From assembly GCF_003991155.1 (NCBI RefSeq), contig NZ_CP031293.1: a DNA stretch of 64,000 nt. One strand, written 5' to 3'. Below are positions 1,969-22,648 of the stretch, one piece after another. A program made the translations under genes and the position numbers. The DNA comes from Escherichia coli. GTDB taxonomy: Bacteria > Pseudomonadota > Gammaproteobacteria > Enterobacterales > Enterobacteriaceae. The notes beneath the pieces are model-generated. The model ran no database searches and was not told the DNA's origin. It was given only the letters and a program-made list of their open reading frames with translations. Numbering within the stretch: the stretch's first letter is position 1; the number at the start of each line of letters is the position of its first letter.

Positions 1969-2067
1969 GCATCAGCAATGAGATGTTTAATCTGGATTCA
2001 CTCCAGAAGTGATCACCACCCTGCCTACAGAGCCAGATGTGAAGGATGATGAGTAGAATTATCGCTA

Positions 2068-3650: not shown

Positions 3651-3677
3651 CGAGTGCATTTATCCATCGTTGAGTCA

Positions 3678-3706
3678 AATTTACCCAACTTTATTCAAAA
3701 AGTCAA
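3678..3706 (-). promoter_or_regulatory. Late promoter PR' (Q-utilisation region)
   Basis: Minus strand TTGACT-17 nt-TAAATT then TTGACTCAACGATGG, near-identical to the lambda PR' region as recalled. Confidence 0.6.
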
Positions 3707-3748
3707 TATTATGCCGTTAATATGTTGCCATCCGTGGCAATCATGCTG

Positions 3749-5034: not shown

Positions 5035-5218
5035 CTCTTTCACTCCATCCGCGATGAACCATGAGAACGTCGTTGACGATGGCGTGCATTTTCCCGTCTT
5101 TATCATCAACGTATTTTCTTACCGTGCCGCGACTACATTTCAGTCTGCGTGCCACTTCTGTCTGGTTTCCGTATGCTTCAACGAGCATGTCTGGAATGGT
5201 TTTTACTGAGAACGTCAT
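5012..5218 (-). CDS. ninH: NinH
   Basis: 68 aa [37 protein letters not shown]..., lambda NinH-like. Confidence 0.8.
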
Positions 5219-5826: not shown

Positions 5827-5995
5827 CGTCTTCTTCCTCGTACATTGAGCTATTCGGATCGCTCATCAGTTCTGCGCAGCAGTGCTCACACACGTGAACT
5901 TCCAGCACATGCAGCTTCTGACCGCAGTTAGCGCACGTTAAAGCTCGCTCGACGCTTTCTTTCTGGTATTGAAGAGATTGGGATGGACTAAGCAT
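5819..5995 (-). CDS. ninF: NinF
   Basis: 58 aa [50 protein letters not shown]..., start overlaps upstream stop (TAATG); below the ORF-track cutoff. Confidence 0.7.
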
Positions 5996-6360
5996 TATTG
6001 GATTCTCTGCATCATGAGAAAGACAATCATGGCGGCGCGAAGGGGATTTTCATGTATAGCTCGCTTAGATTTACAGTAGGCCACACCGCGTGCACCCCAC
6101 TCGTCTTCATCGAGATTGATAATGCTAATCCTGTATTTTTCAATAATCGGCCATGAGTCTGCTGGGTTTGCGCATGGGTTAAAGGATCCGCGCTCAACTT
6201 CTACTTCAACTGCGTCTCCGTTTACAATGTCTCCCTCAAATGAGACAAACACCATATCGCCATTCTCACCTTCTTTGTAATCCGGTGATCCGTTATGAAT
6301 GGCTTCGAATACCGCCACGTTAATTTCAAAATCACTTAACTGTGAATAATCCATTGTCAT
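5995..6360 (-). CDS. Hypothetical protein inserted between ninE and ninF
   Basis: ORF with ATGA start/stop overlap to ninE; start taken at MTMDYSQ... Confidence 0.5.
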
Positions 6361-6533
6361 TTCCTCGCACGATGTCTTAGCCACCGGATATCCCACAGGT
6401 GAGCCGTGTAGTTGAAGGTTTTTACGTCAGATTCTTTTGGGATTGGCTTGCGTTTATTTCTGGAGCGTTTCGTTGGAAGGTATTTGCAGTTTTCGCAGAT
6501 GATGTCGGTGATGCTTCGTCGCTGTCGTCTCAT
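6357..6533 (-). CDS. ninE: NinE
   Basis: [58 protein letters not shown], lambda NinE-like; start at internal Met. Confidence 0.7.
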
Positions 6534-7057
6534 GCCGCCCTCCTGACGCCCTGCCCGATCGCCATCAATGCCGCTTTGGATACGGTAGTAAACATCCGTC
6601 GAGGATTGATGAACGGTCGCCAAATCAGCAGCATGGAACCTTTGCTGTTTCCCTTCTTCTCCAGCCCTGTCGATGGTTCGATAAAATTAATCCGTCCATC
6701 AGTGATGATGCGAACTTCGTCAATACTCTCCAGAGCCTTGCTGAACCATCCGACAGACATATCCTCTGGCACAAGCATCACTACCGTCTGTCGCTGTTGT
6801 ATGCACTGCTCAGCGGCTTTTTCCACCCACGGCCTGATATTGCTGTACGGTGGGTTATTCCAGATTGCACCGTGGCTTACCCACTCAGAATTGAGCGCGT
6901 CGTCGGCCTCAGTTAGCCAGTGAGCACACAGAGCATTTTTGTCGCTCGCTGCCGAATCCAGCCAGAATCCAAACTCAATATCCAGTGCATCAAAAAGCCA
7001 AAGCGGCGTTTGCCAGCAGTCCTTGTCGTGTGCTGGCGTATTTGATTTGATAGTCAT
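6530..7057 (-). CDS. Phage DNA N6-adenine methyltransferase (Dam-like)
   Basis: NPPYS catalytic motif; [25 protein letters not shown]...; ATGA overlap with ninB stop. Confidence 0.7.
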
Positions 7058-7497
7058 GCAGCCCGATCTCCCCATCTCGCTTTCCACTCCAGAGCCAGTC
7101 TCGCTTCGTCTGACCACTTAACGCCACGCTCTGTACCGAATGCCTGTATAAGCTCTAATAGCTCCGCAAATTCGCCTACACGCATCCTGCTGGTTGACTG
7201 GCCTATTACCACAAAGCCATTCCCGGCAAGGTTAGGAACAACATCCTGCTGCTTTAATGCTGCGGTAAACACACACTTCCAGCTTTCTGCATCCAGCCAA
7301 CGCCCATGCCATTCAACCTGACGAGAGACGTCACCTAAGCAGGCCCATAGCTTCCTGTTTTGGTCTAAGCTGCGGTTGCGTTCCTGAATGGTTACTACGA
7401 TTGGTTTGGTTGGGTCTGGAAGAATTTTCTGGATAGCTTGAATGGCGTTCTGCTGATGGATGGGGCTTCTTAGTTCAAACGTTAGTTTCCTCACCAT
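7054..7497 (-). CDS. ninB: NinB recombination protein
   Basis: 147 aa, near-identical to lambda NinB over most of its length as recalled. Confidence 0.85.
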   Translation of the reverse strand: MVRKLTFELRSPIHQQNAIQAIQKILPDPTKPIVVTIQERNRSLDQNRKLWACLGDVSRQVEWHGRWLDAESWKCVFTAALKQQDVVPNLAGNGFVVIGQSTSRMRVGEFAELLELIQAFGTERGVKWSDEARLALEWKARWGDRAA

Positions 7498-7641
7498 TTA
7501 CGCTCCTGTAATCGTCAAGTGCAGCTGCAATAGTCCCTATCGGGTCATGGTCTTGCCCGATAATCTCATTTACGTTTTCATCTTCTTCCACACCGAAAAA
7601 GAATCGCAGGGCTAACATGATTTCTTCGTATGCGCTCATAC

Positions 7642-7956
7642 TCACTCCTTCACTTTGACTCCAGCAGTGCGGATGGCCTCTACATCGCTTTCGTATTGTG
7701 ATTCTGCACCTGAGTCATAGCCAATGTGATAATCACCGGGAAGTGGGCCTTTCTTTGGCTTTTGCAGCTCAATTTCAATAGCTGCTCTCGATGCCTGCCA
7801 CGTTTGCCAGTGGCCTTGAACATCGTCCATCACGTATTGACCACCAATATTACCGCTGCCAATTTCATGGTGATTTTCAGGGTAACGGATAAGGTCTGAA
7901 GATTCGCCCCCACGTCGCAACCAACTTTCTTCAAACTGCTTTCTTGATTCGTCCAT
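7642..7956 (-). CDS. Hypothetical phage protein (104 aa)
   Basis: ORF in early-right operon between helicase terminator and ninB. Confidence 0.45.
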   Translation of the reverse strand: MDESRKQFEESWLRRGGESSDLIRYPENHHEIGSGNIGGQYVMDDVQGHWQTWQASRAAIEIELQKPKKGPLPGDYHIGYDSGAESQYESDVEAIRTAGVKVKE

Positions 7957-7973
7957 TGATACTTACCCTCAGT

Positions 7974-8180
7974 TCAACTCACAAAACGCCACGCCATTTT
8001 TGCTACGACAACAGGCATAACACCGATAATCACCCAGACAAATGCAGCGCCAAACAACGTATACCATGGGTCTTTACCGTCATTCACAAGACGAATGTAG
8101 CTATGCAGAACAATAAAAAACGTCAGAAGAATCCATCCAACGCCAACGCATTTGAATGCGACGAGCATAAACTCAGCCAC
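7974..8180 (-). CDS. Hypothetical small membrane protein (68 aa)
   Basis: Two predicted hydrophobic helices; ORF only. Confidence 0.35.
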   Translation of the reverse strand: MAEFMLVAFKCVGVGWILLTFFIVLHSYIRLVNDGKDPWYTLFGAAFVWVIIGVMPVVVAKMAWRFVS

Positions 8181-8193
8181 GATTTACCCTCCC

Positions 8194-8227
8194 CCAAATA
8201 AAAAGGCCTGCGATTACCAGCAGGCCT
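8194..8227 (-). terminator. Intrinsic terminator downstream of helicase gene (tR2-like)
   Basis: Perfect 8-bp stem AGGCCTGC/GCAGGCCT with 8-nt loop, followed on minus strand by TTTTTATTT. Confidence 0.55.
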
Positions 8228-8252
8228 GTTATTAGCTCAGTGATGTAGATGG

Positions 8253-9629
8253 TCATACGTCCGCCCCTTGTGCATATCGTCTGCCACGCGCAGCAGGCGC
8301 ATTTGATGCTGTGCAAATCTGTCTGGCTTCATCCTGGTCACATGCAACAAAGTGTCCGTTACAGAACCGCTGGTAAACCGTACCAAGTGAGCCAAAACGG
8401 TTTTTCGTCACGATGATTTCAGCAAATGGCGCGGCGCTACTGTTCTCGTCATATACCGCTTCCCGATAGAGCATGATGATTGAGTCTGCGTCCTGCTCAA
8501 TGCTTCCTGAATCACGCAAATCTGCGTTTGTCGGGCGTTTGTTTGGTCGCTTCTCAACATCGCGCGAAAGCTGACTCAGGGAGATAACAGGCGTTTTCAG
8601 GTCTTTCGCCATCGCCTTCAGGCTTCCGGAGATGTGAGCAATTGCGAGGTCGTTGCGGTCTGCTTTCGGCTTCTCAATCAGGCCAAGATAATCCGCCATG
8701 ATTAGAGACAGGTTTGGATTTTCCTGTTTATGCCGTTCTGCGATTGAGCGTATTTCTTCGACCGATAACCGCGAGGCATCGACTACCCATACATCCAAAT
8801 CTGCAAGCTGACTCATGCCGTTAGCAACACGCGCCCAGCCTTCGTCATCCATCGATGCAGGATTTCGCAGTACGCTAACCGACATCCTCCCGGCGTTGGC
8901 AATGCTTCGCTCTGCAATCTGCAATGCGCTCATTTCCATCGAGAAAATCAACACTCCGCGCCGGACGTCAGAACCGGGAATAACGCGGCTTGCAACGCCT
9001 TCAGCAATCTTCAGCGCCAGCTCGGTTTTCCCCATACCAGGACGAGCGGCGATAATCACCAGGTCTTCCGCGTTCATCCCTCCGGTGATGGCGTCAAGTT
9101 CTTCGATTCCGGTCTTCAGGGTATCTGACTCTTCTCCGTTCCTCAGACGCCTGTCAAGCGTGTCAGTGTAGTCAGTGATGATTTCCCCTAACCGTACAGG
9201 TTTAACCTCGTCACGGGGCTTTCTGATGGCTGAAAGACGCTTTACAAGCTCGTCCATCGCCTGACTCGATGTATCGATGGTTCCGCTCTGAATTGGTTCA
9301 CGCATTTCATCCATGATTTCCAGCACCAGACGGCGGTGATAGTTATCCGCGACCATTCCGGCATATCCTTTCAGGTTTGCGGCACTCGGGCAGTTTTTGC
9401 TGGTCATCAGGATTGACGTGAAATGCTCCTCTCCGCACGCCTCGGCAACCATCAGCGCGTCGATTAGGTTTCTGTTTCTCGCCTGCTTGCGGATAACCTC
9501 GAAGGCTTTCCGGTAGAGCGGAATTGAAAACGCTTCCGGCTCCAGTGTTGCCAGAACGTCGCTGGCGGTTGGAGTTAATCCACCAATCAGCAGACCGCCG
9601 ATAACGCTCGCTTCGATATCCTGTCTCAT
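8253..9629 (-). CDS. Replicative DNA helicase, DnaB family (phage P-gene position)
   Basis: Walker A GMGKTE, DnaB C-terminal motifs ([23 protein letters not shown]). Confidence 0.85.
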
Positions 9630-10573
9630 GCAATCCCCCTGTCTGCAAACTTCCCTTCCCGTACTCCCGTTAACGAATCTTCCCTCAGCAGGTAATCAAA
9701 ATCTGCCGTCCATCCCGTGTCGTTGTCTCCGAAGTAAAACGGCTTGGCCTGATGCACAAACGCCCTGACATACGCTCTGAAACCGTCCACGTTTGGCGTT
9801 TTCAGTTGCGGGATGATTTTCTTCAGGCGGCGTTTGCGTTTCTCGTTGACCGCAACAGCGTGTGGCAGTCTGTCACCGACTTCGGTGTTGTAAGCGTTCA
9901 GGAAGGATTCGTAGTCGATTCGTTCTGCCTTGCGACGTTCAGGTTTAACCTGCCCATCGCCTCCCCCATTGGGGGGTAGGGGGGTATTATTTATATTCTT
10001 GTTAATACCTTCTTGTTCATGATGTGCGGTTGTTTGTGCGGCTTCATGTGCGCTTTCATGTGCGGCATGTACGCTGAATGCCGCGCCATTACTGGCTTCA
10101 TCATGTGCGGCATCATGTGCGGTTGTTTGTGCGGCTTCATGTGCGGGTGAACTGTCCATTTTTTGAGCATATTCATGGTAATTTGTGATGGTTATCACAC
10201 GACCTTTTTGCTTCTCCCCATCAATGGAGATCATCCCCTCTTTCACAAAAACCTGAAGCATCCGCTCAACCTGATCACGGCTTGCCGGCTTGCCATGCCT
10301 GTCGCATAACTGAAGACCTAAATCAGCTGCTGTCACAACCAGTTGACCGGGTTGCAGATGCCATTCATGACCTTTGAAATTCGCTTTGTATGGCTTTCTG
10401 GCGGCATTCAGGAGAAGGTTTTCCCACAGGGTGCGAAGATAAACATCTTTCGCCCATGACTGTTTCAGAATGCTCCGGTACAACGGAATGTAACCAGTTT
10501 TCTGGTTCTCCATCCTGTTGCTCCTGCGCTCGTGTGCGGCGCTGAAATCGTAGATTTTTGCTGTATTGCTCAT
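9626..10573 (-). CDS. Replication initiator (O-like replisome organiser)
   Basis: Position between cII-side genes and helicase; contains internal nucleotide iterons; start overlaps helicase-side gene boundary. Confidence 0.65.
10022..10145. repeat. Iteron cluster (putative phage origin) inside the O-like gene
   Basis: 31-bp perfect direct repeat ATGTGCGGTTGTTTGTGCGGCTTCATGTGCG at 10022-10052 and 10115-10145 plus several TCATGTGCGG units; adjacent AT-rich tract at 9985-10010. Confidence 0.5.
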
Positions 10574-10575
10574 AA

Positions 10576-10848
10576 CTACCTGCCTTGACGAAAGACCTTA
10601 AGAACATCGTTAAACTGACTTACGGATATGTCTTCTTTGAGAAGCTTTTCCAGAAATGCGTTTGGAATGAACGTATATCCCTCCTCTTTTGGTAGAGACG
10701 AGAGCAACGCCCTCGCCTCAGCCTTCAGAAGCTCAGTTCTGGCAACTTTCACAAAAGAGATTTGAGTTCTTTCATCAATGGAACGAAGGAAGCGCAAACG
10801 CTTAGCTTCTTTGTGTGTATCAGGTGGATTAAAGCCTTTGTTTCGCAT
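10576..10848 (-). CDS. Hypothetical protein between cII and O (90 aa)
   Basis: MRNKGFNPPDTHKEAKRLRFLRSIDERTQ...; GAGG RBS; stop abuts O start. Confidence 0.5.
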   Translation of the reverse strand: MRNKGFNPPDTHKEAKRLRFLRSIDERTQISFVKVARTELLKAEARALLSSLPKEEGYTFIPNAFLEKLLKEDISVSQFNDVLKVFRQGR

Positions 10849-10870
10849 ATAATTACCTCGCTGGATGTTG

Positions 10871-11164
10871 TTAAAATTCCATTTGTATTTGATCAGAACG
10901 CTCGGTTGCCGCCGGGCGTTTTTTATTGGTGAGAATCGAAGCAACTTGTCGTGCCAATCGAGCCATATCGTCGTCAACGACGCCCCATTCAAGAACAGCA
11001 AGCAGCATTGAGAACTTTGGAATCCAGTCCCTCTTCCACCTGCTGATCTGCGACTTATCAACTCCCACAGCTTCCGCTGTCTTCTCAGTTCCAAGCATTG
11101 CGATTTTGTTAAGCAACGCACTCTCGATTCGTAGAGCCTCGTTGCGTTTGTTTGCACGAACCAT
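10871..11164 (-). CDS. cII: Transcriptional activator CII
   Basis: MVRANKRNEALRIESALLNKIAMLGTEKTAEAVGVDKSQISRWKRDWIPKFSMLLAVLEWGVVDDDMARLARQVA..., near-identical to lambda CII as recalled. Confidence 0.9.
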   Translation of the reverse strand: MVRANKRNEALRIESALLNKIAMLGTEKTAEAVGVDKSQISRWKRDWIPKFSMLLAVLEWGVVDDDMARLARQVASILTNKKRPAATERSDQIQMEF

Positions 11165-11221
11165 ATGTAAGTATTTCCTTAACAAATAAGAAGTTATGCG
11201 CATCAACTTATGCGCGTTGTA

Positions 11222-11266
11222 TTCCCGCATTTCGGCGGGAATGAGGACCATGACTGTTAAAGAGCA
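11222..11266 (-). promoter_or_regulatory. nutR (boxA GCTCTTTAAC + boxB hairpin)
   Basis: On minus strand boxA at 11256-11265 then boxB TCCCGC-CGAAAT-GCGGGA at 11222-11241, between cro and cII. Confidence 0.55.
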
Positions 11267-11272
11267 ATTTGC

Positions 11273-11458
11273 TTATGCCGCTTTGCGGTAAGCGCTTTCT
11301 TGATACTTCAGGGCGCCAGCTGTAACGACTTCCAGTCGATAGGCGTCTTTCTCTGGGATGACTTCCTTCCACTGAGAGACTGCTGCGTCGCTAATGCCTA
11401 ACGCTTTAGCTACAGCACGCTGGGTTCCGAAGTGGTCGATAACATCTTTCTTGTACAT
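11273..11458 (-). CDS. cro: Cro-like repressor
   Basis: 61 aa HTH protein (QRAVAKALGISDAAVSQW) transcribed divergently from cI. Confidence 0.75.
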   Translation of the reverse strand: MYKKDVIDHFGTQRAVAKALGISDAAVSQWKEVIPEKDAYRLEVVTAGALKYQESAYRKAA

Positions 11459-11538
11459 AGACTCGCTCCGAAATTAAAGAACACTTAAATTATCCACTAA
11501 AGGAATCTTAAGTCAAGTTTATTTAAGATGTCTTAACT
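11459..11538. promoter_or_regulatory. OR operator region between cro and cI
   Basis: Inverted repeats with TCTTAA/TTAAGA half-sites (ATCTTAAGTCAAGTTTATTTAAGAT, TTAAGATGTCTTAA). Confidence 0.45.
11488..11516 (-). promoter_or_regulatory. PR promoter
   Basis: Minus strand TTGACT-17 nt-ATAATT upstream of cro. Confidence 0.55.
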
Positions 11539-12189
11539 ATGAAAACTCAATTGATGGGAGAGCGCATTCGCGCTCGGAGAAAAGAACTCAAGATCAGGCA
11601 GGCCGCACTTGGAAAGATGGTCGGCGTGTCTAATGTTGCCATATCTCAGTGGGAACGCTCTGAGACAGAGCCAAATGGAGAGAATCTTCTCGCCCTGGCT
11701 AATGCGTTGAAGTGTTCCCCTGACTATCTGATGAAAGGAGAGGAAAGTCTTTCAAACATTGCCTATCACAGTAGGCATGATCCAAGAGGGTCATACCCTC
11801 TGATTAGCTGGGTGAGCGCAGGATGCTGGATGGAAGCTGTAGAACCATATCATAAGCGTGCAATAGATAACTGGTACGATACAACCGTAGACTGTTCAGA
11901 AGATTCGTTTTGGTTGGATGTGAAGGGAGACTCAATGACGGCTCCGGCCGGTCTCAGTATCCCTGAAGGAATGATAATACTCGTCGATCCTGAAGTAGAG
12001 CCGCGTAACGGGAAACTGGTAGTTGCAAAGCTCGAAGGAGAAAACGAGGCAACTTTCAAGAAGTTAGTTATTGATGCAGGCAGGAAGTTTCTAAAACCAC
12101 TTAACCCACAATATCCGATGATCGAGATCAACGGAAACTGCAAAATCATCGGCGTAGTTGTCGATGCAAAACTAGCAAACCTTCCATAA
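11539..12189 (+). CDS. cI: CI repressor (HTH + S24 LexA-like peptidase domain)
   Basis: N-terminal HTH (VGVSNVAISQWERSE), C-terminal S24 motifs (GDSM, K in VVAKLEGE). Confidence 0.9.
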   Translation: MKTQLMGERIRARRKELKIRQAALGKMVGVSNVAISQWERSETEPNGENLLALANALKCSPDYLMKGEESLSNIAYHSRHDPRGSYPLISWVSAGCWMEAVEPYHKRAIDNWYDTTVDCSEDSFWLDVKGDSMTAPAGLSIPEGMIILVDPEVEPRNGKLVVAKLEGENEATFKKLVIDAGRKFLKPLNPQYPMIEINGNCKIIGVVVDAKLANLP

Positions 12190-12190
12190 G

Positions 12191-12212
12191 GGGGCATTCG
12201 CCCCTTTTTTTT
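12191..12212 (+). terminator. Intrinsic terminator after cI
   Basis: GGGGC-ATTC-GCCCC followed by TTTTTTTTATTT. Confidence 0.7.
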
Positions 12213-12280
12213 ATTTCCTTTAAAAATCAAAGCCAAACTTAAGTTACGAAAGAAAATTTAAGTTTTCTTCAAAAATACTC

Positions 12281-12309
12281 TTGACCATTAATTAAAGAGA
12301 TCTTAAATT
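12281..12309 (+). promoter_or_regulatory. PL promoter with flanking OL operator half-sites
   Basis: TTGACC-17 nt-TAAATT; flanking palindromes CTTAAATTTAAG and TTAAGT repeats. Confidence 0.5.
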
Positions 12310-12355
12310 TAAGCCATCAGCAGGACGCTGGAAGCCAAACGGAACAGATTGGCAG

Positions 12356-12396
12356 GCTCTTTAACATTGATGGGATTGTCCCGCCGAAATGCGGGA
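12356..12396 (+). promoter_or_regulatory. nutL (boxA GCTCTTTAAC + boxB hairpin)
   Basis: boxA 12356-12365; boxB TCCCGCCGAAATGCGGGA 12379-12396, identical to nutR boxB. Confidence 0.55.
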
Positions 12397-12795
12397 ACCA
12401 AAGAGTAGTTGGCTTTGGGATTGGATGAATGAGCAGGCTGATGCTCGACCAATGTATAAACAGCGCTCATGGCAAGCAGTAACCAATCTGCGCCTCAAGA
12501 CAGCGTCACTGGTAGTGCGGGCGCTCTAACCAGTAAGCCGGAGTTCAGCACCGGCCATCCAATCGCCAAAGTCAATTCCATAGGCGTTATGCAGCCGCCA
12601 CCTATTCAAGAAAGCTGCACAAGAGGTAGGAGGATTTATGTGAATACTTACATTCAATTGAGAGATTAATTAAATAGAACTGATCGAGCAGAGTCCATAA
12701 AGGCTCATAAATGCTCTTCCATCCCCGTCTAATTGGCGGGGAAGGAAACCACTTTGTAATAAAAAAATTCCAAAGTTGTTTCATCGGAGGTCAAC

Positions 12796-13095
12796 ATGAC
12801 AGTAGTCATTACATATCTAGCTGACGATAACGCCAGAAATCGCCGCAGAGCACGCAGGCAGGCTCAACGTGAACAGGCAATGCAAGAACAGCGACTGGCG
12901 CGAAAGATTGCGCTAAAGCTCTCTGGTTGCGTCAGAGCAGACAAAGCAGCATCACTCGGAAGCCTTCGCTGCAAGAAGGCAGAAGAAGTCGAGAGTAAAC
13001 AGAACCGTATTTACTACCGCAAGCCACGCAGTGAAATGGGTGTGACTTGTGTTGGTCGCCAGAAAATGAAATTAGGCAGCAAACCACTTATTTGA
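12796..13095 (+). CDS. N: Antitermination protein N
   Basis: Arg-rich motif NARNRRRARRQAQ; C-terminus RIYYRKPRSEMGVTCVGRQKMKLGSKPLI resembles lambda N. Confidence 0.8.
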   Translation: MTVVITYLADDNARNRRRARRQAQREQAMQEQRLARKIALKLSGCVRADKAASLGSLRCKKAEEVESKQNRIYYRKPRSEMGVTCVGRQKMKLGSKPLI

Positions 13096-13106
13096 GAGGA
13101 ATTAAT

Positions 13107-13730
13107 ATGTCATCAATCCGCTTAACTACGAGAATGAAAGAGAAAATCGCTCGTAACGCTTTAATTAAGTCTGGGGTTTTCACTGAACTTGAAGAAGTAA
13201 CAAAGTTAAAGAACCAGCTTGCACTTGACGCCAGAGTTATTGCGTTTGGCGGTAAAAAGAAAACTGAGGAAGTGGATCAGTTATCATCCAGGTTAGTAGC
13301 TATAAGTGAAGAACTTGAAAAGATGGGATGTTCATTTTACTCATACGATGTTCGTTCTACTTCAATTTATCTGACTGTATCTGGCAGAAGGGTTGGATGG
13401 CATTCATATGGGAAAGACGGCAACGGCGAAGATATATTGCTCCCTACTCCAACCAAAGATAAATGCATGTTTGATGCAGAACACGAAATAACAAAAAGGT
13501 TTGATGAAATCTGCGCATTGCAACAAAAACTTGAAGCCAAGAAAAAGGATATCGAATCAAATGTATGGGCTGCTTTGAACTCAGTCACAACAGTTAAGCG
13601 ACTTATTGAAGTTTGGCCTGAAAGCAAAGAATTGCTACCAAAAGAAGCAGACAAAGCAAGTACAGCACTTCCTGCTTTACGGGTAGAAGATTTGAATAAG
13701 ATGATTGGACTTCCTTCCGAGTCCGCATAG
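13107..13730 (+). CDS. Hypothetical phage protein (207 aa) in the ral/sieB-equivalent position
   Basis: ORF with GAGGA RBS directly after N; no family recognised. Confidence 0.5.
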   Translation: MSSIRLTTRMKEKIARNALIKSGVFTELEEVTKLKNQLALDARVIAFGGKKKTEEVDQLSSRLVAISEELEKMGCSFYSYDVRSTSIYLTVSGRRVGWHSYGKDGNGEDILLPTPTKDKCMFDAEHEITKRFDEICALQQKLEAKKKDIESNVWAALNSVTTVKRLIEVWPESKELLPKEADKASTALPALRVEDLNKMIGLPSESA

Positions 13731-13864
13731 TCGGCCTTTATTTTTGGCACTAACAACAGAATAAACACTGCACTGTGTATTCATTCCAACGAGTGAATAC
13801 ACGGAGCAATGTCGCTCTTAACTAAACAGGAGCCGACTTGTTCTGATTATTGGAAATCTTCTTT

Positions 13865-13891
13865 GCCCTCCAGTGTGAGGGCGATTTTTTT
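13865..13891 (+). terminator. tL-like intrinsic terminator
   Basis: GCCCTC-CAGTGT-GAGGGC followed by GATTTTTTT, 12 nt upstream of next start codon. Confidence 0.5.
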
Positions 13892-13903
13892 GATGGAGGA
13901 TAT

Positions 13904-14872
13904 ATGAGTGAAGTAACAGATTTAGTTGTTATTGAAAAAGCAAATGCAATGACTGTATTTCAGTCTGCCGACCAGATTGAAGAAATCCTTCAAAGGGTTG
14001 AACGTGAAGTTATGTCCTTTGTGCCTGATATCACAACGGCAAAGGGCAGAAAGGAGATCGCTTCTCTGGCGTATAAAGTTGCGCAGACGAAAACATATCT
14101 CGATGGTCTTGGCAAAGACCTTGTTGCTGAACTGAAGGAAATTCCAAAGCTAATTGATGCCAACCGCAAGACAGTGCGCGATCGCCTTGATGAGCTGAAA
14201 GCCAAGGCACGCCAGCCTCTTACTGATTATGAGGAAGAACAGGCGCGGATTAAAGCCGAAGAAGAAGCTAAGGCAGCAGCTGAAGCTCTCGCAAAGCAAA
14301 TTGAGTCTGACCATGAAATAGCTATTTTGATGGATCGCGAATTTGACCGCCAAAGAGAAGAGGCAAGACTCAAAGCGGAGCAGGAAAAGCGAGAGCATGA
14401 AGAACGCTTAAAAAGAGAAGCTGAAGAGAAAGCCAGAGCAGAAGCCGAAGCAAAGGCAAAAGCCGAAATTGAAGCAGCAGCAAGGCGAGAAGCAGAAGCT
14501 AAGGCCGCAGCGGAACGTGCAGAGCGTGAACGCATTGAAGCCGAGCAACGAGCACAGCGCGAAGCAAAAGAGGCAGCAGAACGAGCTGAAAGAGAAAAGC
14601 AGGCGGCAATTGAAGCAGAACGCCGAAAAGCACAGGAGGAGGCTGAACGAATCCGGCGCGAGGCTGAAGCAAAAGAGCAAGCCAGAATAGCAGAAGAAAA
14701 AAGAATCAAGGACGAAGAAGAGCGTAGAGCAAAGGATAAAGCTCACCGGAAAGAAGTAAATAACAAAATACTTGCTGACCTTATCAAGGTTGGCGCATCA
14801 GAAGATGTTGCTAAAAATATCATAACAGCCATCGTAAAAGGCGAAGTATTCGCAACAAAAATAACCTACTAA
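13904..14872 (+). CDS. Hypothetical protein with long charged E/R/K/A-rich single alpha-helix segment
   Basis: N-terminal about 110 aa domain, about 170 aa low-complexity AEAK/ERAE repeats, short C-terminal domain; GGAGG RBS. Confidence 0.5.
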   Translation: MSEVTDLVVIEKANAMTVFQSADQIEEILQRVEREVMSFVPDITTAKGRKEIASLAYKVAQTKTYLDGLGKDLVAELKEIPKLIDANRKTVRDRLDELKAKARQPLTDYEEEQARIKAEEEAKAAAEALAKQIESDHEIAILMDREFDRQREEARLKAEQEKREHEERLKREAEEKARAEAEAKAKAEIEAAARREAEAKAAAERAERERIEAEQRAQREAKEAAERAEREKQAAIEAERRKAQEEAERIRREAEAKEQARIAEEKRIKDEEERRAKDKAHRKEVNNKILADLIKVGASEDVAKNIITAIVKGEVFATKITY

Positions 14873-14895
14873 TAAACCAACATAAGGAACCACCC

Positions 14896-15027
14896 ATGAT
14901 TTACGCAATCGCGGGAGGCGCTCGCATGGGTGCCTTCCAACTAAATGAATCTTTACTTGAACGAATCACCCGTAAATTACGTGACGGATGGAAAAGAGTT
15001 GAGGTCTTATTATGCGCAATGAAATAG
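14896..15027 (+). CDS. cIII: CIII (FtsH inhibitor)
   Basis: 43 aa MIYAIAGG...ESLLERITRKLRDGWKR, lambda CIII core motif; below ORF-track cutoff. Confidence 0.65.
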   Translation: MIYAIAGGARMGAFQLNESLLERITRKLRDGWKRVEVLLCAMK

Positions 15028-15164
15028 CCATCAATCACCAGATGCTTCGTGCTGCACAGAACAAAGCAGTAATAGCCAGATTTATTGGTGATTCAAAAAT
15101 GTGGCTTGAAGCAAATAAAGCAATGAAATCAGCTATCAACCTTCCGTGGTATCGCAGGAAATGA
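15012..15164 (+). CDS. kil: Kil-like protein
   Basis: 50 aa MRNEIAINHQMLRAAQNKAVIARFIGDSKMWLEANKAMK; FIGD motif resembles lambda Kil as recalled; overlaps cIII 3' end. Confidence 0.5.
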   Translation: MRNEIAINHQMLRAAQNKAVIARFIGDSKMWLEANKAMKSAINLPWYRRK

Positions 15165-15418
15165 GTTTTACAGATAACTGGTCAGACGAAGAATTCATTC
15201 GTCAGATGAAAGAATTAGTCGGTAACGAAGGAGATATGCATGTCACTTGCAACCACAGTGAAGGAGAGCAAGTTACAGAGACGCATGTACACGCAGCAGG
15301 CGTTAATGTATCGCCAGAAGGGAGATCGTGAAGGTGTTCGCGTATTTTTAAATGCGGCAAAGACTGAAGTATTAAATCAGCGTTATTTCCTTGGGCCGTG
15401 TCCATTCTGAGGTGAATT

Positions 15419-16126
15419 ATGGATTTGAACAAATTCGATGAACCATTCAGCCCTGAAGATATCGAATGGCGAATACAGCAAAGCGGTAAAACACGCGATG
15501 GCAAGGTGTGGGCTATGGTGCTGGCTTATGTCACGAACCGGGCAATCATGAAACGCCTGGACGATGTTTGCGGCAAAGCAGGATGGCGCAATGAATACCG
15601 CGATATTCCCAACAACGGCGGAGTTGAATGCGGCATATCAATCAAGATTGATTCCGAATGGGTAACCAAATGGGATGCTGCTGAAAACACGCAGGTAGAA
15701 GCCGTCAAAGGTGGTCGTTCCGGTGCAATGAAGCGTGCTGCCGTTCAATGGGGAATCGGTCGGTATCTGTATAACCTTGAGGAAGGTTTCGCACAAACAT
15801 CTCTCGATAAAAAGCAGGGATGGCACAGGGCAAAACTGAAGGATGGAACAGGATTTTACTGGCTCCCTCCATCGCTGCCGGGATGGGCAATCCCAGCATC
15901 AGATAACAAACCATCACCAGAAAATACCAACCAGAAATCTCCATCGGTTGACTGCGAACAAATCCTGAAAGACTTCAGCGATTATGCATCAACAGAAACT
16001 GACAAGAAAAAACTCATCGAGCGTTATCAGCGTGACTGGCAATTAATGGCTGGCAACGAGGAGGCGCAGGCTAAATGCGTTCAGGTAATGAACATCAGAG
16101 TTAACGAACTAAAACAGGCGGCATAA
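15419..16126 (+). CDS. Putative single-strand annealing protein (Rad52/Sak-like)
   Basis: 235 aa immediately upstream of ssb in the recombination module; family assignment from memory. Confidence 0.45.
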   Translation: MDLNKFDEPFSPEDIEWRIQQSGKTRDGKVWAMVLAYVTNRAIMKRLDDVCGKAGWRNEYRDIPNNGGVECGISIKIDSEWVTKWDAAENTQVEAVKGGRSGAMKRAAVQWGIGRYLYNLEEGFAQTSLDKKQGWHRAKLKDGTGFYWLPPSLPGWAIPASDNKPSPENTNQKSPSVDCEQILKDFSDYASTETDKKKLIERYQRDWQLMAGNEEAQAKCVQVMNIRVNELKQAA

Positions 16127-16633
16127 ATGGCAAGCAGAGGCGTAAATAAGGTGATTATCCTTGGTCGGGTAGGACAAGACCCGGAAGTTCGATACTCACC
16201 ATCAGGAACAGCGTTCGCTAACCTGACAATAGCCACGTCAGAACAATGGCGAGATAAAAATACTGGCGAGCAAAAGGAATTAACTGAATGGCATCGTGTT
16301 GCTGTATCCGGGAAACTGGCTGAGGTCGTGGGGCAGTATGTGAAAAAAGGTGATCAGATTTATTTCGAGGGAATGCTGAGAACCAGAAAGTGGAAAGACC
16401 AGTCAGGGCAAGACCGTTACACAACCGAGGTTCATGTCGGAATTAATGGCGTGATGCAAATGCTTGGCGGCATTGGCGACAGCAAACAACAAGCAGCCAG
16501 CAGGCAATCACAGAAGCCACAGCAGCAATCATCACCAGCACAACACAACGAACCTCCGATGGATTTTGACGACGATATACCCTTTGCACCAGTAACTCTC
16601 CCCTTCCCTCGTCACGCTATTCACGCAATTTAA
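16127..16633 (+). CDS. ssb: Single-stranded DNA-binding protein
   Basis: OB-fold N-terminus [34 protein letters not shown]..., Gly/Gln-rich linker, DFDDDIPF acidic tip followed by extra 15 aa. Confidence 0.9.
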
Positions 16634-16646
16634 TCAGGAGAAAATC

Positions 16647-16940
16647 ATGCCAGCGCCTCTGTATGGTGCGGATGACCCGCGCCGCTGTTCCGGCAATTCC
16701 GTATCGGAGGTGCTGGATAAATTCAGGAAAAACTACGACCTGATAATGTCGCTACCGCAGGAAACGAAAGAGGAAAAGGAATTTCGCCATTGTATATGGC
16801 TTGCAGAGAAAGAAGAACGCGAGCGAATTTACCAGACATCAATCCGACCATTCCGCAAAGCCACATATACCCACTTCCCTGAAATTGACCCGCGCCTGCG
16901 TAATTACCGCTCACGCTATGGCGCTATCAGTAATGACTGA
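16647..16940 (+). CDS. Hypothetical phage protein (97 aa)
   Basis: ORF with AGGAG RBS. Confidence 0.45.
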
Positions 16941-17114
16941 GGAATTTACCATGAGAGGACTTGCATACAATCCCGGCATTCTTCCGGCAGAAATGATTAT
17001 TCGCCAACGTGTAAAGCCAATGCCATCGAGAGAGGAATTGCTTAAGAGAAATTCTTTTCCATCAGTAAATCAAAACAAATATCTGAATGCGATGTGGCGT
17101 AAAGGAGGTAAGCA

Positions 17115-17741
17115 GTGAGCAAGATTGATTATCAAAAGCTTCGTGAAATCGCTGAAAAAACAAAAATTGCTGGTGAAACACCCGTAATGCCTTTCGATCA
17201 GCGAATTAATGCGCTTAACGATTTTATGAAGCACTTTTCGCCAGATATCGCGCTGGCATTGTTGGATGAACGGGAAAGAAACCTGCAATACATCAAACGC
17301 CGCGACCAGGAGAACGAGGAAATTGCGCTAACGGTAGGGAAGCTGAGAGTTGAGCTGGAAGGCAAAGACAGCAAAATAGCCAATCTTACCGCCGAACGCG
17401 ATGCTCTTCGTGAAGGTGAGATGGGCGACGCTAGGCATAGCAACACACGGGCCGCAGCTGATATCTACTTCCAACTGGTCGAGGAGTGCGAAATTCCTGC
17501 TGGCGGATCTCTGGTCGAGTACGTTGACGATATGCGCGAGAAGCTGGAAGCCGCAGAGAAGCGCATTGCTGAGCTGGAGTTGCTGGAGGTTGTGCTTCCG
17601 CAATGCTATAGCATGTTGCATCGCGTCGATTTTGACGAGCCTTACCACACTGAAATGGTTTACAGGCAGCATCAGGTTCTTGAGGCACTGCACAACGCTG
17701 GAATAAACGTCACCGAAGCAGGTAAAGGAGAGGCATCATGA
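17115..17741 (+). CDS. Hypothetical phage protein, possibly Ea22-like
   Basis: 208 aa coiled-coil-rich protein in the lambda ea22 map position. Confidence 0.4.
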
Positions 17742-18241
17742 GCACTATCACAAGAGAATGGCTGCAGCAGGCTATCAACGATTATGAAAGCGTTCGTGAT
17801 GAGCTTCCTTTCGGGCTTGATGATTACCAGGGGAATATCCTGGCTGCCCTGCGTATCGCACTGGCATCGCTGGAAGCAGAGCCGGTGGCGTGGAAGGTAA
17901 CATTCACGCAAATTGACCGTGAATATAACACGTTCACTGGTATGTATTCTGACAAAGCAGAAGTCGAACGGTGGGTGCGGCTGCATAAAGCATGTAATTT
18001 TCGGGCAGATATAACACCGCTTTATACCGCCAAGCCAGTGCCGGTAACTCCGGATGGTTGGATAAGCTGTAGTGAGCGAATGCCGAACGACGCGCAGTGG
18101 TGCGTAGTGAACACAGAATACGGGTATTACGTGCAATGCTGGTCTGAAGGTCAAGGGTGGCTTGGTGATGATATCAGCATCCCTGAATGCGATGTAATCA
18201 ATTGGATGCCGCTACCAGAACCACCGCAGGAGATGAAGTAA
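17738..18241 (+). CDS. Hypothetical protein, DUF551-like C-terminus
   Basis: C-terminal WISCSERMP...WMPLPEPP resembles DUF551 as recalled. Confidence 0.45.
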   Translation: MSTITREWLQQAINDYESVRDELPFGLDDYQGNILAALRIALASLEAEPVAWKVTFTQIDREYNTFTGMYSDKAEVERWVRLHKACNFRADITPLYTAKPVPVTPDGWISCSERMPNDAQWCVVNTEYGYYVQCWSEGQGWLGDDISIPECDVINWMPLPEPPQEMK

Positions 18242-18525
18242 TGGACTCCTTCGCGAAATATACGATTATTGACTGGATTGCCTTCCTTCAGGTTTTGCTC
18301 ATCTGGTTTTATATGGCTTACAGGAGTGGACAGTGGATTGTCAGTGTAGCCTGTAGCAGGGGATGGCGTTGGTGGAACCGAAAGAATAAAAAAGCACTGG
18401 CCTTGGATTCGTTTTACGAAGCATTCAATCTTAACAGCCTTCAGCCTGGTTCTGTCATTGTAGTCACCACTCAAAGCGGCATGACGATACAAATTCACAA
18501 GCCAAAGGAGGAAGGTCGTGGCTAA
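18241..18525 (+). CDS. Hypothetical membrane protein
   Basis: Hydrophobic segment IIDWIAFLQVLLIWFYMAY; start chosen at MDSFAKY. Confidence 0.35.
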   Translation: MDSFAKYTIIDWIAFLQVLLIWFYMAYRSGQWIVSVACSRGWRWWNRKNKKALALDSFYEAFNLNSLQPGSVIVVTTQSGMTIQIHKPKEEGRG

Positions 18526-18799
18526 CCTGCAACTTGCCGTCAAAGGTGAATACTTCGACGCCATGATTCGCGGGGAGAAAACGGAAGAGTATCGCCTGTG
18601 CAATGACTACTGGAATAAACGCCTCGTTAATCGTAAGTATGACCGCCTGATTATCACAAAGGGATATCCGAAGCGCGACGATTCCAGCCGCAGAATTGAC
18701 GTCCCGTATGACGGATATGAAATCAAGACAATCACACATCCGCACTTCGGCGATAAACCGGTAACGGTATTCGCGATAAAGGTGAATATCAATTGCTAA
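18518..18799 (+). CDS. Hypothetical protein (ASCH-like?)
   Basis: 93 aa ORF, AGGAGG RBS. Confidence 0.4.
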   Translation: MANLQLAVKGEYFDAMIRGEKTEEYRLCNDYWNKRLVNRKYDRLIITKGYPKRDDSSRRIDVPYDGYEIKTITHPHFGDKPVTVFAIKVNINC

Positions 18800-18912
18800 A
18801 TTAGTAGCATAGCATAAAGATGCTTGCATTAATGAAGTGTGTATAATAATGCCTCATCAATAGTAAACTACTGAAATAGCAAAAAAAATGCATATTAAAG
18901 AGGATTCGAAAA

Positions 18913-19104
18913 TTGAAAATGTTCATGCAAATAGACAGACGCATAGATATTAATGGCAATTCATACTTAGTTAGATGCGAAGAGAGGCCTAACGGTGAGT
19001 GGCGTGTATATGATATTGACCGTAAGATCAATATCAGCACCATGAACAAAGACACTGCCTTTGATGAATGGAAAGCTGAAGCTAAAAAACAACATAATTC
19101 GTAA
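18913..19104 (+). CDS. Hypothetical protein in AT-rich moron-like segment
   Basis: ORF preceded by AT-rich promoter-like sequence and GAGG RBS. Confidence 0.35.
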   Translation: MKMFMQIDRRIDINGNSYLVRCEERPNGEWRVYDIDRKINISTMNKDTAFDEWKAEAKKQHNS

Positions 19105-19184
19105 AATTACAAAAACCCTAACCAATTGATGGATTTCTTTTATCTGAACTCGCTACGGCGAGTTTTGTTTTATGGAGATGATAA

Positions 19185-19352
19185 ATGCACTTCCGAGTCA
19201 CAGGAGAATGGAATGGAGAGCCATTCAACAGAGTTATCGAAGCGGAGAACATCAACGACTGCTACGACCACTGGATGATATGGGCGCAGATAGCACATGC
19301 AGACGTAACCAATATTCGAATTGAAGAACTGAAAGAACACCAAGCCGCCTGA
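19185..19352 (+). CDS. Hypothetical small protein (55 aa)
   Basis: MHFRVTGEWNGEPFNRVIEAENINDCYDHW...; stop lies inside terminator hairpin. Confidence 0.3.
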   Translation: MHFRVTGEWNGEPFNRVIEAENINDCYDHWMIWAQIAHADVTNIRIEELKEHQAA

Positions 19353-19366
19353 TGGCGGTTTTTTGG
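19343..19366 (+). terminator. Intrinsic terminator
   Basis: AGCCGCC-TGAT-GGCGGTT followed by TTTTTTGG. Confidence 0.5.
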
Positions 19367-19375
19367 GGGTAGTAG

Positions 19376-19567
19376 ATGGCTGCAATTCACATTGTATCAA
19401 TAACATGCAATGCAATTCAGATAGTTGCTTGCATTATCTTTGTTTTCTCAATCATTCGCTCCAGACGATATTCTCCAGCAATTAACCGACATCCTGCACA
19501 AGTTGAAGCCGTCAGGATGGCTATAGAGTTACGAAATGAGATGAATAAGGCATTAATGGAGATGTAG
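19376..19567 (+). CDS. Hypothetical small hydrophobic protein (63 aa)
   Basis: IVSITCNAIQIVACIIFVFSII putative TM segment. Confidence 0.3.
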   Translation: MAAIHIVSITCNAIQIVACIIFVFSIIRSRRYSPAINRHPAQVEAVRMAIELRNEMNKALMEM

Positions 19568-19691
19568 AAACCATTCACTGACAAACATTAAGAGTGGAAA
19601 TAAAGAAATCACACCGCCTCACACTCGATGAGGCCTGTTCATATCTGATAGAGCCGCTATATGGCGGTTTCTTTTTGCCTGGAGAATTAAG

Positions 19692-19883
19692 ATGACCGAT
19701 ACCAGCCTGATTCCTGAGAAAGAAGTGATGAACAAGCTCGGTGTTTCATCACGTCAGACAATCTGGAACTATACCAAACGGCACGGATTTCCGAAGCCAG
19801 TCAGAACCCACCCCAAATCATACCTTCGTGAAGCTGTTGAAGGGTGGATTCTTAACGGTGGCGTTAATCAGAAATGCTCCTGA
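19692..19883 (+). CDS. xis: Excisionase / AlpA-family DNA-binding protein
   Basis: 63 aa small HTH protein overlapping the 3' end of int on the opposite strand. Confidence 0.7.
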   Translation: MTDTSLIPEKEVMNKLGVSSRQTIWNYTKRHGFPKPVRTHPKSYLREAVEGWILNGGVNQKCS

Positions 19884-21042
19884 TGTGCCAGAACAATTTA
19901 TCAGCGTGAAGCTCATACGCTTTGCGCTGAGCCTCTATCCAGTCGTGTTTATTGTATACGGACATTATCCCGCCAAGTTCATGACCGAGCATTCGCTCAG
20001 TAACATGAGGCTCGACATTCATCTCGGACAGACGTGTAACAAGCGTTCTTCTGAAATCGTGTGTTCGCCAGTAACCTAGATCCATCCCTCCCCTTATTCT
20101 ATTTACGAATCGGTTGGCTGCAGCGATGCTGATCGGTTTGTTTATGTCTTCTCCAGGGAAAAGAACATCATTGTACGTTGTCATGGCCTTTTCGAGGAAA
20201 GGCTTAATTTGTTCGAAGATTGGACGGCGGATAGCATTACCCATCTTGCTATGCTCTTTCGGTACGGTCCATACGTTTTCCAGCAGGTCAAATTCTGTCT
20301 TTTTTGCCAGCCTAAGCTCTGAGAGCCTCGCCCCCCACAGCATAAGCATCTGATGAAGTAGCTTATTTGACGTAGACGCACGGCTTCTTTCAATAGCAAG
20401 CCAAATCTTAGCCAGTTCGTGATACGACAGTACACGATCCCCTACCTCAGCGCGGGAGCCGAAGTCCCTTGGTTGGATGCTCATAATTGCGCAACTATCT
20501 ATCAACTGACGCCGCATGCACCAACTTATTGCTGATCTTAGTTGACTTAGCACCTGCCTTGCTCGGCGTGGATTATCTCTTTCTTCTTCGGTAAGCAGGT
20601 CAACCCATTGCTTAACCGTGATAGAAGATGCCGGACGATTAGGGAAGGCGTCATGCATGCGCTTCATAACCGTTGATCGGTAAAGTGCCTGGGTCTTTTC
20701 TCTGAGAGTTGTAGAGACGTAGTTGTCGAACCAGTAGTCGAGACACTGGGCGACCGTCATGGAGTTCTCCACCTTCTCTTCAAAATAAGTGCGTGGATCC
20801 GTTCCTGAGAAATAGAGCTTTCGCAAGTCAGCAGTGATCTGTCTGGCATCCTTCAAAGACATGGATGGGTATCGACCAAGCCCAAGTCGATTAGGCTTGC
20901 CATGCCAGCGATAGCGGTACTGGAACTGGATGACCCCCTTCGGTGAAATTCGTACGCTGAGGCCATCGGCATCAGCCACTTCTTGTGGGCCCGAATATGG
21001 TTTACCATAAATAGTACGAAGTTTTGTGTCGCTTATAGCCAT
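19864..21042 (-). CDS. int: Tyrosine integrase
   Basis: 392 aa; C-terminal catalytic region HDFRRT...LGHELGG...YNKH. Confidence 0.9.
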   Translation of the reverse strand: MAISDTKLRTIYGKPYSGPQEVADADGLSVRISPKGVIQFQYRYRWHGKPNRLGLGRYPSMSLKDARQITADLRKLYFSGTDPRTYFEEKVENSMTVAQCLDYWFDNYVSTTLREKTQALYRSTVMKRMHDAFPNRPASSITVKQWVDLLTEEERDNPRRARQVLSQLRSAISWCMRRQLIDSCAIMSIQPRDFGSRAEVGDRVLSYHELAKIWLAIERSRASTSNKLLHQMLMLWGARLSELRLAKKTEFDLLENVWTVPKEHSKMGNAIRRPIFEQIKPFLEKAMTTYNDVLFPGEDINKPISIAAANRFVNRIRGGMDLGYWRTHDFRRTLVTRLSEMNVEPHVTERMLGHELGGIMSVYNKHDWIEAQRKAYELHADKLFWHIRSISD

Positions 21043-21223
21043 AAATAATATTTGGTACGCTCAGAAATAATGGTTTGGTACACATCTGGTACACAATATC
21101 ACATGGACAACAGCGCACAGTAAACAACTATATTTGACGTTCGTAGACATACTCAGGTGAAAAAATGGTTGTTTTTCGAGTTATAACAGACAGTTAATTA
21201 ACTACAGTGGACAATGCTAGACA
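21043..21223. promoter_or_regulatory. Prophage attachment-site region (arm-type repeats; core not resolved)
   Basis: TGGTAC(G/A)C repeats at 21053, 21076, 21087 and GACAATG repeats near 21205-21225, between int and sbcB. Confidence 0.35.
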
Positions 21224-22648
21224 ATGACAGACACAGATAAACAACCTACCTTCCTCTTTCACGATTACGAAACCTTTGGAACGCACCCCGCGTTAGATCG
21301 CCCTGCACAGTTCGCAGCCATTCGCACTGATAACGAATTCAATGTCATCGGCGAACCCGAAGTCTTTTACTGCAAGCCCGCGGATGACTATTTACCCCAG
21401 CCTGGAGCAGTATTAATTACCGGTATTACCCCGCAGGAGGCACGGGCGAAAGGAGAAAACGAAGCCGCGTTTGCCGCCCGTATTCACTCGCTTTTTACCG
21501 TACCGAAGACCTGTATTCTGGGCTACAACAATGTGCGTTTCGACGACGAAGTCACACGCAACGTTTTTTATCGTAATTTCTACGATCCTTACGCCTGGAG
21601 CTGGCAGCATGATAACTCGCGCTGGGATTTACTGGATGTTATGCGTGCCTGTTATGCCCTGCGCCCGGAAGGAATAAACTGGCCTGAAAATGATGACGGT
21701 CTACCGAGCTTTCGCCTTGAGCATTTAACCAAAGCGAATGGTATTGAACATAGCAACGCCCACGATGCGATGGCTGATGTGTACGCCACTATTGCGATGG
21801 CGAAACTGGTAAAAACGCGTCAGCCACGCCTGTTTGATTATCTCTTTACCCATCGTAATAAACACAAACTGATGGCGTTGATTGATGTTCCGCAGATGAA
21901 ACCCCTGGTTCACGTTTCCGGAATGTTTGGGGCATGGCGTGGCAATACCAGCTGGGTGGCACCGCTGGCGTGGCATCCTGAAAATCGCAATGCCGTAATT
22001 ATGGTGGATTTGGCAGGAGACATTTCGCCATTACTGGAGCTGGATAGCGACACATTGCGCGAGCGTTTATATACCGCAAAAGCCGATCTTGGCGATAACG
22101 CCGCCGTTCCGGTTAAGCTGGTGCATATCAATAAATGTCCGGTACTGGCCCAGGCGAATACGCTACGCCCGGAAGATGCCGACCGACTGGGAATTAATCG
22201 TCAGCATTGCCTCGATAACCTAAAAATTCTGCGTGAAAATCCGCAAGTGCGTGAAAAAGTGGTGGCGATATTCGCGGAAGCCGAACCGTTTACGCCTTCA
22301 GATAACGTGGATGCACAGCTTTATAATGGCTTTTTCAGTGACGCCGATCGTGCAGCAATGAAAATTGTGCTGGAAACCGAGCCGCGTAATTTACCGGCAC
22401 TGGATATCACTTTTGTTGATAAACGAATTGAAAAACTGTTGTTCAATTATCGAGCGCGCAACTTCCCGGGGACGCTGGATTATGCCGAGCAGCAACGCTG
22501 GCTTGAGCACCGCCGCCAGGTCTTCACGCCAGAGTTTTTGCAGGGCTACGCTGATGAATTGCAGATGCTGGCACAACAGTATGCCGATGACAAAGAGAAA
22601 GTGGCGCTGTTAAAAGCGCTTTGGCAGTACGCGGAAGAGATTGTCTAA
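21224..22648 (+). CDS. sbcB: Exodeoxyribonuclease I
   Basis: 474 aa, matches E. coli SbcB throughout except first about 9 residues (MTDTDKQP here). Confidence 0.9.
   Translation: MTDTDKQPTFLFHDYETFGTHPALDRPAQFAAIRTDNEFNVIGEPEVFYCKPADDYLPQPGAVLITGITPQEARAKGENEAAFAARIHSLFTVPKTCILGYNNVRFDDEVTRNVFYRNFYDPYAWSWQHDNSRWDLLDVMRACYALRPEGINWPENDDGLPSFRLEHLTKANGIEHSNAHDAMADVYATIAMAKLVKTRQPRLFDYLFTHRNKHKLMALIDVPQMKPLVHVSGMFGAWRGNTSWVAPLAWHPENRNAVIMVDLAGDISPLLELDSDTLRERLYTAKADLGDNAAVPVKLVHINKCPVLAQANTLRPEDADRLGINRQHCLDNLKILRENPQVREKVVAIFAEAEPFTPSDNVDAQLYNGFFSDADRAAMKIVLETEPRNLPALDITFVDKRIEKLLFNYRARNFPGTLDYAEQQRWLEHRRQVFTPEFLQGYADELQMLAQQYADDKEKVALLKALWQYAEEIV

Follow-up and report, generated by a model that had tools for sequence, protein, structure and literature searches.

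The DNA analyzed here, a 64,000-nucleotide stretch of Escherichia coli contig NZ_CP031293.1 referred to throughout as the window, contains a tyrosine integrase gene (int, 19,864-21,042, minus strand) and the exonuclease I gene sbcB (21,224-22,648, plus strand; PF00929 and PF08411), separated by a spacer of 181 bp. Convergent with int is a small gene (19,692-19,883, plus strand) for an AlpA/Vis-like helix-turn-helix protein, the probable excisionase; this RDF gene shares 20 bp with the 3' end of int, and the two are not co-transcribed. The match of the small protein to the Pfam AlpA family was below cut-off (17.8 versus 21 bits), its orthologues in HK140 and HK544 are named AlpA-family proteins in RefSeq, and its MAFFT alignment with P4 Vis gave 29% identity; no significant similarity to TorI was noted by BLASTP. 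The int ATG (21,042) is 215 nt from the attachment-site core, TTTCACGATTACG (21,257-21,269), and the 5' end of int faces this core. The core consists of 13 bp that are identical in attP and sbcB; they are annotated as a duplication in Stx2 phage 1717 and as attP in HK544, and are also given as core in the Sf101 paper.

Phage homology stops at 21,269, and imperfect homology to the sbcB gene of non-lysogens starts at about 21,240. The first 11 codons of sbcB (21,224-21,256), including a new start codon, are supplied by the phage arm, so that MTDTDKQPTFLF replaces MMNDGKQQSTFLF, while the native 5' end of the gene is visible at the other prophage end, as seen in 1717. With the native sbcB promoter displaced to that end, the phage arm must also drive sbcB; no clear sbcB promoter was found in the phage arm. 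Relatives inserted in sbcB of other enterobacteria likewise supply a start codon and SbcB N-terminus (L024, L033, L035, L037, L038, L040, L042 and L044). Three IMG/VR loci with 61% identical Int (L058, L070 and L083) are inserted instead in the 5' end of a gene of the DJ-1/PfpI/YhbO family, about 230 nt upstream of int, and also rebuild the N-terminus of their target gene. The two target genes have a common core, TTTCGTAATC, because both encode D-Y-E-T there, and it seems to be this 10-bp core, with its incidental DYET coding, that guides the choice of target in this integrase family.

The integrase was 98-99% identical to those of phages 2851, 1717, HK140, mEp234 and Sf101, and from int to the core the sequence shared 98-99% identity with the int/attP modules of Stx2c phage 2851, Stx2 phage 1717, HK140, HK544, mEp234 and Sf101. 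The junction beside int was present in approximately 581 of 5426 complete E. coli genomes and the other junction in 569. This int/attP module is common to unrelated phage backbones (Stx phages, HK140, Sf101 and P22-like phages), and since it travels with int through these backbones, any protein that binds its sites should be encoded in the module or by the host. This leaves Int, the AlpA/Vis-like protein encoded next to it or a host factor as the reader of the repeats described below. Within the window, the prophage part (1-19,800) was closest to the P22-like and lambdoid phages IME10, CUS-3, Kapi1 and HK544 (50-60% coverage, 95-97% identity) and less like the Stx phages that have the same int module; no single phage record covered 80% of it, giving it a mosaic look.

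Three copies of TGGTAC(G/A)C, in one orientation and beside the int start, had been claimed at 21,053, 21,076 and 21,087, and all were confirmed by direct reading and by a pattern search, in which they were the only matches in the whole 64-kb window. All lie on the plus strand, 11-52 nt upstream of the int start (21,042, minus strand). Candidate arm-type site 1, the farthest from int (TGGTACAC, 21,087-21,094; GTGTACCA on the int-sense strand), occupies positions -52 to -45 from the int ATG, candidate site 2 (TGGTACAC, 21,076-21,083; extended form TTTGGTACAC) positions -41 to -34, and candidate site 3 (TGGTACGC, 21,053-21,060; extended form TTTGGTACGC) positions -18 to -11, ending 10 nt from the ATG. 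Site 1 is spaced 11 bp from site 2 and site 2 is spaced 23 bp from site 3. All three copies agree with a longer form, T(T/C)TGGTACRC, or GYGTACCA on the int-sense strand. The number of matches in the window was not unusual (3 observed versus 2.4 expected), and dinucleotide shuffling of the 181-bp spacer between int and sbcB produced some triple of 8-mers with at most one mismatch pairwise in 458 of 5000 cases (p about 0.09). The window by itself is insufficient to establish the repeats as a feature, and the case for them rests on comparison with other sequences.

A search for the same motif at the other prophage end had been proposed beforehand, and two further copies were present there. Thus, in the intact attP of HK140 and HK544, TTTGGTACRC occurs twice beyond the core as TTTGGTACGC and TTTGGTACAC; the two are spaced 12 bp, share the orientation of the three proximal copies and lie approximately 55-77 bp past the 13-bp core (HK140, L001 4025-4047). 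The Stx2 phage 1717 prophage has an identical pair at its other end, beside the displaced native 5' end of sbcB. At least two copies of the motif, fixed in advance, occurred in the 150 nt past the HK140 core in only 8 of 200,000 shuffles (p about 4e-5). The distal arm was not found inside the 64-kb window with up to three mismatches, which places the other end of the prophage outside the window; the distal arm was accordingly read in modules 98-99% identical to this one (HK140, HK544 and 1717) rather than in the window's own prophage. In the free phage, attP would measure about 300 bp, with three sites 165-205 bp from the core on its int side and two tandem sites 55-77 bp from it on the far side. 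The core has no GTAC, and the repeats lie outside it, are unlike it in sequence and occur on both arms. The IHF consensus WATCAANNNNTTR, scanned over the whole attP, had a sole match at one mismatch or less, which overlaps site 2, and no good IHF consensus was noted between the arm sites and the core. In HK140, a umuD-like moron co-oriented with int (L001 4057-4446, minus strand) has its stop codon approximately 10 nt from the distal pair, and transcription from this moron could cross attP into int in the excised form, which is impossible in the prophage.

The conservation of the repeats was evident from relatives collected by tblastn and an IMG/VR scan (integrases 54-93% identical), many of which sit at the same place in sbcB of other enterobacteria. 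In an alignment of 16 upstream regions (Int identity 54-100%), three GTAC blocks were invariant at approximately -50, -39 and -16 from the start codon, with spacings of about 11 and 23-24 bp, and the sequence between blocks diverged, most of all between sites 2 and 3. Invariant among the 16 relatives were GTAC at site 1, GTAC and the following AA at site 2 and the pattern G.GTAC at site 3. On the distal arm of four attP lineages (HK140, SEN34, L034 and phi349), essentially just two GTAC blocks were conserved, at approximately -301 and -289. Among close relatives, 51 of 227 arm positions were variable; three of these were within the 8-mers, all three at the degenerate R/Y position. Site variants also matched across the arms, such that GTACCA occurs at all five sites of the window type and GTACA at nearly all sites of SEN34, L034 and phi349, the exception being the second distal site of phi349 (GGGTACT). 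Read on the int-sense strand, the sites of the family follow the consensus G-N-GTAC-(C/A)-A-R-A. The number and position of sites are therefore conserved among diverged relatives while their flanks drift.

Two Pfam domains were recognized in the protein encoded by int. PF13356, the P4-type N-terminal arm DNA-binding domain, was matched at residues 4-85 (4.4e-18) and PF00589 at 3.2e-17, and the N-terminal domain also matched PDB entries 3jtz, 3ju0 and 3rmp. Lambda Int entries (5j0n and 1z1b) were matched as well, and homology to lambda Int was detectable over residues 42-364, whereas the lambda-type N-domain, PF09003, was not matched, PF13356 and PF00589 being the only families reported by Pfam. 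The best-conserved part of Int among relatives was its N-terminal 60 residues. These findings bear on the original prediction that the repeats are arm-type sites of a lambda-type integrase: the assignment as arm-type sites was supported by the copies on both arms, by their conservation and by PF13356, but the integrase is of the P4 type rather than the lambda type, and the arrangement of its sites follows P4 and KplE1 attP instead of lambda attP. Considering the presence of the motif on both arms, its conservation footprint, the arm-binding domain of Int and a layout like those of P4 and KplE1, the GTAC sites are assigned to Int. It is thus highly probable, judging from sequence comparison, that the T(T/C)TGGTACRC repeats are arm-type sites for the N-domain of a P4-family Int, and that they represent the int-proximal arm of a phage-2851-type attachment site that is now the int-sbcB junction. 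Weighing against this assignment are the unremarkable statistics of the window alone, the failure of a consensus scan to find a sigma-70 promoter in the spacer, the weak -35 element, the lack of a good IHF consensus between arm sites and core, the 11-12 bp spacing, which would also suit an excisionase, and the single orientation of all five sites, which is unlike the arrangements in P4 and KplE1.

A second family of repeats was noted in the same arm. The sequence GT[CT][CT][AG][CT] (GTYYRY, int-sense) occurred 95 times in sense as opposed to 6 times in antisense over 17 arms (shuffle mean 19, sd 4.3), with a modal spacing of 10 bp. A promoter-proximal block of candidate excisionase sites (21,103-21,148, minus strand), with units that start at -106, -83 and -66, overlaps the -35 region of int, and the corresponding units in relatives are at -105, -95, -85, -75 and -65, in 10-bp phasing. 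A core-proximal block (21,207-21,246, minus strand) consists of four units in 10-bp phase, which read on the plus strand as GTGGACAATG, CTAGACAATG, ACAGACACAG and ATAAACAACC. This block overlaps the phage-supplied start codon of sbcB and covers a GACAATG doublet that had been reported closer to sbcB and was located at 21,210 and 21,220, the second copy overlapping the sbcB ATG at 21,224. The doublet does not count as another arm-type site, being part of this different, 10-bp-phased family. Both blocks occur on the int-proximal arm only and at the same positions in L021-L044. In KplE1, TorI units (GTTCG, GTCCG and GATCG) also form two blocks in attL, and a 10-bp-phased block abuts the -35 element of PintS (PMC2951348). 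From the resemblance of this two-block layout to that of the TorI sites, the GTYYRY array is read as probable sites for the AlpA/Vis-like excisionase encoded at 19,692-19,883.

The position of the proximal repeats relative to a putative int promoter suggests a regulatory role in addition to one in recombination. Since int converges with the early-left genes, sharing 20 bp with the AlpA-like gene, it needs a promoter of its own in the arm. A consensus promoter and terminator scan of positions 20,900-21,350 found nothing. A conserved block, CATGTGATATT (int-sense; 21,095-21,105, minus strand), abuts site 1 and has the form of an extended -10 element (TG-n-GATATT); CATG-Y-RATATTG was conserved directly upstream of site 1 in 14 of 16 relatives. 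On the basis of this conservation and of analogy with PintS of KplE1, the block is a candidate for the -10 element of the int promoter. The -35 element is weak in the window sequence (TTACTG), and GTYYRY units overlap its expected position. An alternative promoter, TTGTGT and CATTAT separated by 18 nt, was rejected, as its -10 element falls in the unconserved spacer between sites 2 and 3. Transcription from the candidate promoter would start approximately 7 nt downstream of the -10-like block, inside site 1, and would place all three sites in the leader. Given that the three proximal sites lie between the -10-like element and the int start codon, Int bound to them would probably interfere with the int promoter. 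IntS of KplE1 was shown to repress its own gene, and P4 Int is reported to do so by binding near the transcription start (PMC2951348). With these precedents and the conserved CATG-Y-RATATTG block next to site 1, the odds that Int represses its own promoter appear about even. Read-through from the early-left genes would run antisense to int and sense into the phage-repaired sbcB, and transcriptional interference or antisense control of int is possible upon induction.

Three other explanations of the GTAC repeats were considered. The first exchanges the roles of the two repeat families, so that the N-domain of Int would read the GTYYRY units and the GTAC repeats would be left to the AlpA/Vis-like excisionase or to an architectural protein of the host. 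A spacing of 11-12 bp is approximately one helical turn and is typical of RDF sites, according to PMC7498355, and GTYYRY repeats show strong enrichment and strand bias in the arm that also contains the proximal GTAC repeats. Further, Int and the RDF diverge in parallel among relatives (60/56% and 59/47% identity), so that covariation of protein and site cannot separate Int from the RDF as the reader of GTAC. The GTAC sites, however, form defined clusters on both arms at positions that correspond to the Int arm sites of P4 and KplE1, whereas GTYYRY units are confined to the int-proximal arm, in two 10-bp-phased blocks that resemble the experimentally defined TorI sites of KplE1. The arm consensus of the P4-family IntS of ICEMlSymR7A, TGKTGGTATC, is similar to TTTGGTACRC, with which it shares TGGTA, but the likeness may be coincidence. 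On balance, exchanged roles appear improbable.

The second explanation, under which the repeats would serve only to control int transcription or translation (as an operator or leader) and would take no part in recombination, draws on the need of int for its own promoter opposite the early-left operon and the AlpA-like gene, and on the fact that the repeats fill the stretch between the conserved -10-like block and the int start codon. Two more copies are nevertheless conserved 250 bp away, past the core, and after integration these lie 40-60 kb from int, which is senseless for a local operator but required of an attP arm; a purely regulatory role is therefore very unlikely. Chance repetition in an AT-rich intergenic spacer is favored by the triples that arise in 9% of spacer shuffles and by a window-wide count that equals expectation, but is effectively refuted by the invariance of the proximal blocks across 54-100% Int identity while the spacers vary, by conservation of the two distal blocks in four attP lineages, by polymorphism that avoids the sites and by recurrence of the motif on the other arm in the shuffle test.

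Assignment of the GTAC repeats to Int agrees with what is known of satellite phage P4, which likewise has a PF13356 integrase, an int gene with its 5' end towards the core, arm repeats immediately before the int ATG and a Vis/AlpA-type excisionase. In the P4 record (NC_001609, 'attP arm sequence repeat' features), a 12-bp tandem pair lies 16-39 bp upstream of int and an inverted copy covers the ATG; another 12-bp tandem pair is located 54-77 bp past the core, as in the window-type attP (55-77 bp). The two systems differ in that P4 Int is only 26% identical to the present integrase, its arm motif is TTGGGGGCAT as opposed to GYGTACCA, two upstream copies and an inverted copy take the place of three direct copies, and the core is in a tRNA-Leu gene rather than in the 5' coding end of sbcB.

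KplE1 (CPS-53), with HK620 and Sf6, is also similar in that IntS carries PF13356, the int promoter is inside attL and int is not co-transcribed with the RDF gene. The arm-type IntS sites of KplE1 (TTTACCC) cover the stretch of attL between the -10 box and the ATG (PMC2951348, Panis et al. 2010), and in its attR two tandem arm sites with 12-bp spacing lie about 55 bp from the core. In contrast with the present module, the integrase is approximately 22% identical (HK620), the arm motif (TTTACCC/GGGTAAAA) is found in both orientations, the target is the tRNA gene argW rather than sbcB, and autoregulation, which is proven in KplE1, is inferred here. Three distantly related PF13356 integrases (22-26% identity) thus each have a 12-bp tandem pair on the far side of the core from int, at a distance of approximately 55-77 bp; besides the HK140 pair, tandem pairs are at L088 3942-3965 and 4151-4174 in P4 and at about L090 1205-1228 in KplE1 attR.

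Similarities were also noted with ICEMlSymR7A, in which a P4-family IntS acts on a 283-bp attP with five arm-type sites, all required, and intS, which adjoins attL, is controlled by an RDF that binds upstream of an arm site (PMC11963761). This element, however, is an alphaproteobacterial conjugative element rather than a phage, and its RdfS activates intS. Lambda is comparable in its heterobivalent integrase, its five arm-type sites (P1, P2 and P'1-P'3) split two and three across the core and its attP of approximately 240-300 bp, but its N-domain is from another Pfam family, its int gene points at attP with the 3' end and is transcribed together with xis from pL, and its arm consensus bears no relation to the motif described here. 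The sbcB module can be classed as a P4-family attP whose arm motif is new and whose three and two sites are all direct; it should work as the known paradigm predicts.

Following the precedents of lambda, P4 and KplE1, the N-domain of Int would grip an arm site while its catalytic domains grip a core site, such that Int would bridge the bent arms to the core in an intasome for insertion into sbcB codons 12-16. The AlpA/Vis-like excisionase, bound to the 10-bp-phased GTYYRY array, would enable the same Int contacts to support excision, and Int on the three proximal sites could also repress the int promoter. More tentatively, the proximal arm may be a compact two-input switch conserved in the integrase family, in which Int on the GTAC sites shuts the promoter, the excisionase over the -35 region tunes the promoter and bends the arm, and induction transcripts run antisense through int.

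In searchable literature on the sbcB module, only the 13-bp core was found, and no arm-type sites for sbcB or Stx phages. The map of attP is therefore new, while the kind of feature is ordinary and expected, with nothing conceptually new. With its five arm sites, two probable excisionase-site blocks, core and probably autoregulated promoter, the full map indicates a minimal attP of approximately 300 bp for sbcB-targeting integration vectors. The shared P4-family layout, with a 12-bp pair 55-77 bp distal to the core and sites between the -10 element and the int ATG, could predict arm sites and attP boundaries for other PF13356 integrases. The phage-2851-type int/attP module is at sbcB in approximately 570-580 of 5426 complete E. 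coli genomes (about 10%) and is carried by Stx2c and Stx1a phages, by the serotype-converting phage Sf101 and by many lambdoid and P22-like phages, and the map offers concrete targets to study or block the excision of Stx prophages. If the two-input switch is true, Int would stay at a fixed low level and the excisionase alone would set the excision of prophages in sbcB, including those of Stx2c and Stx1a phages.
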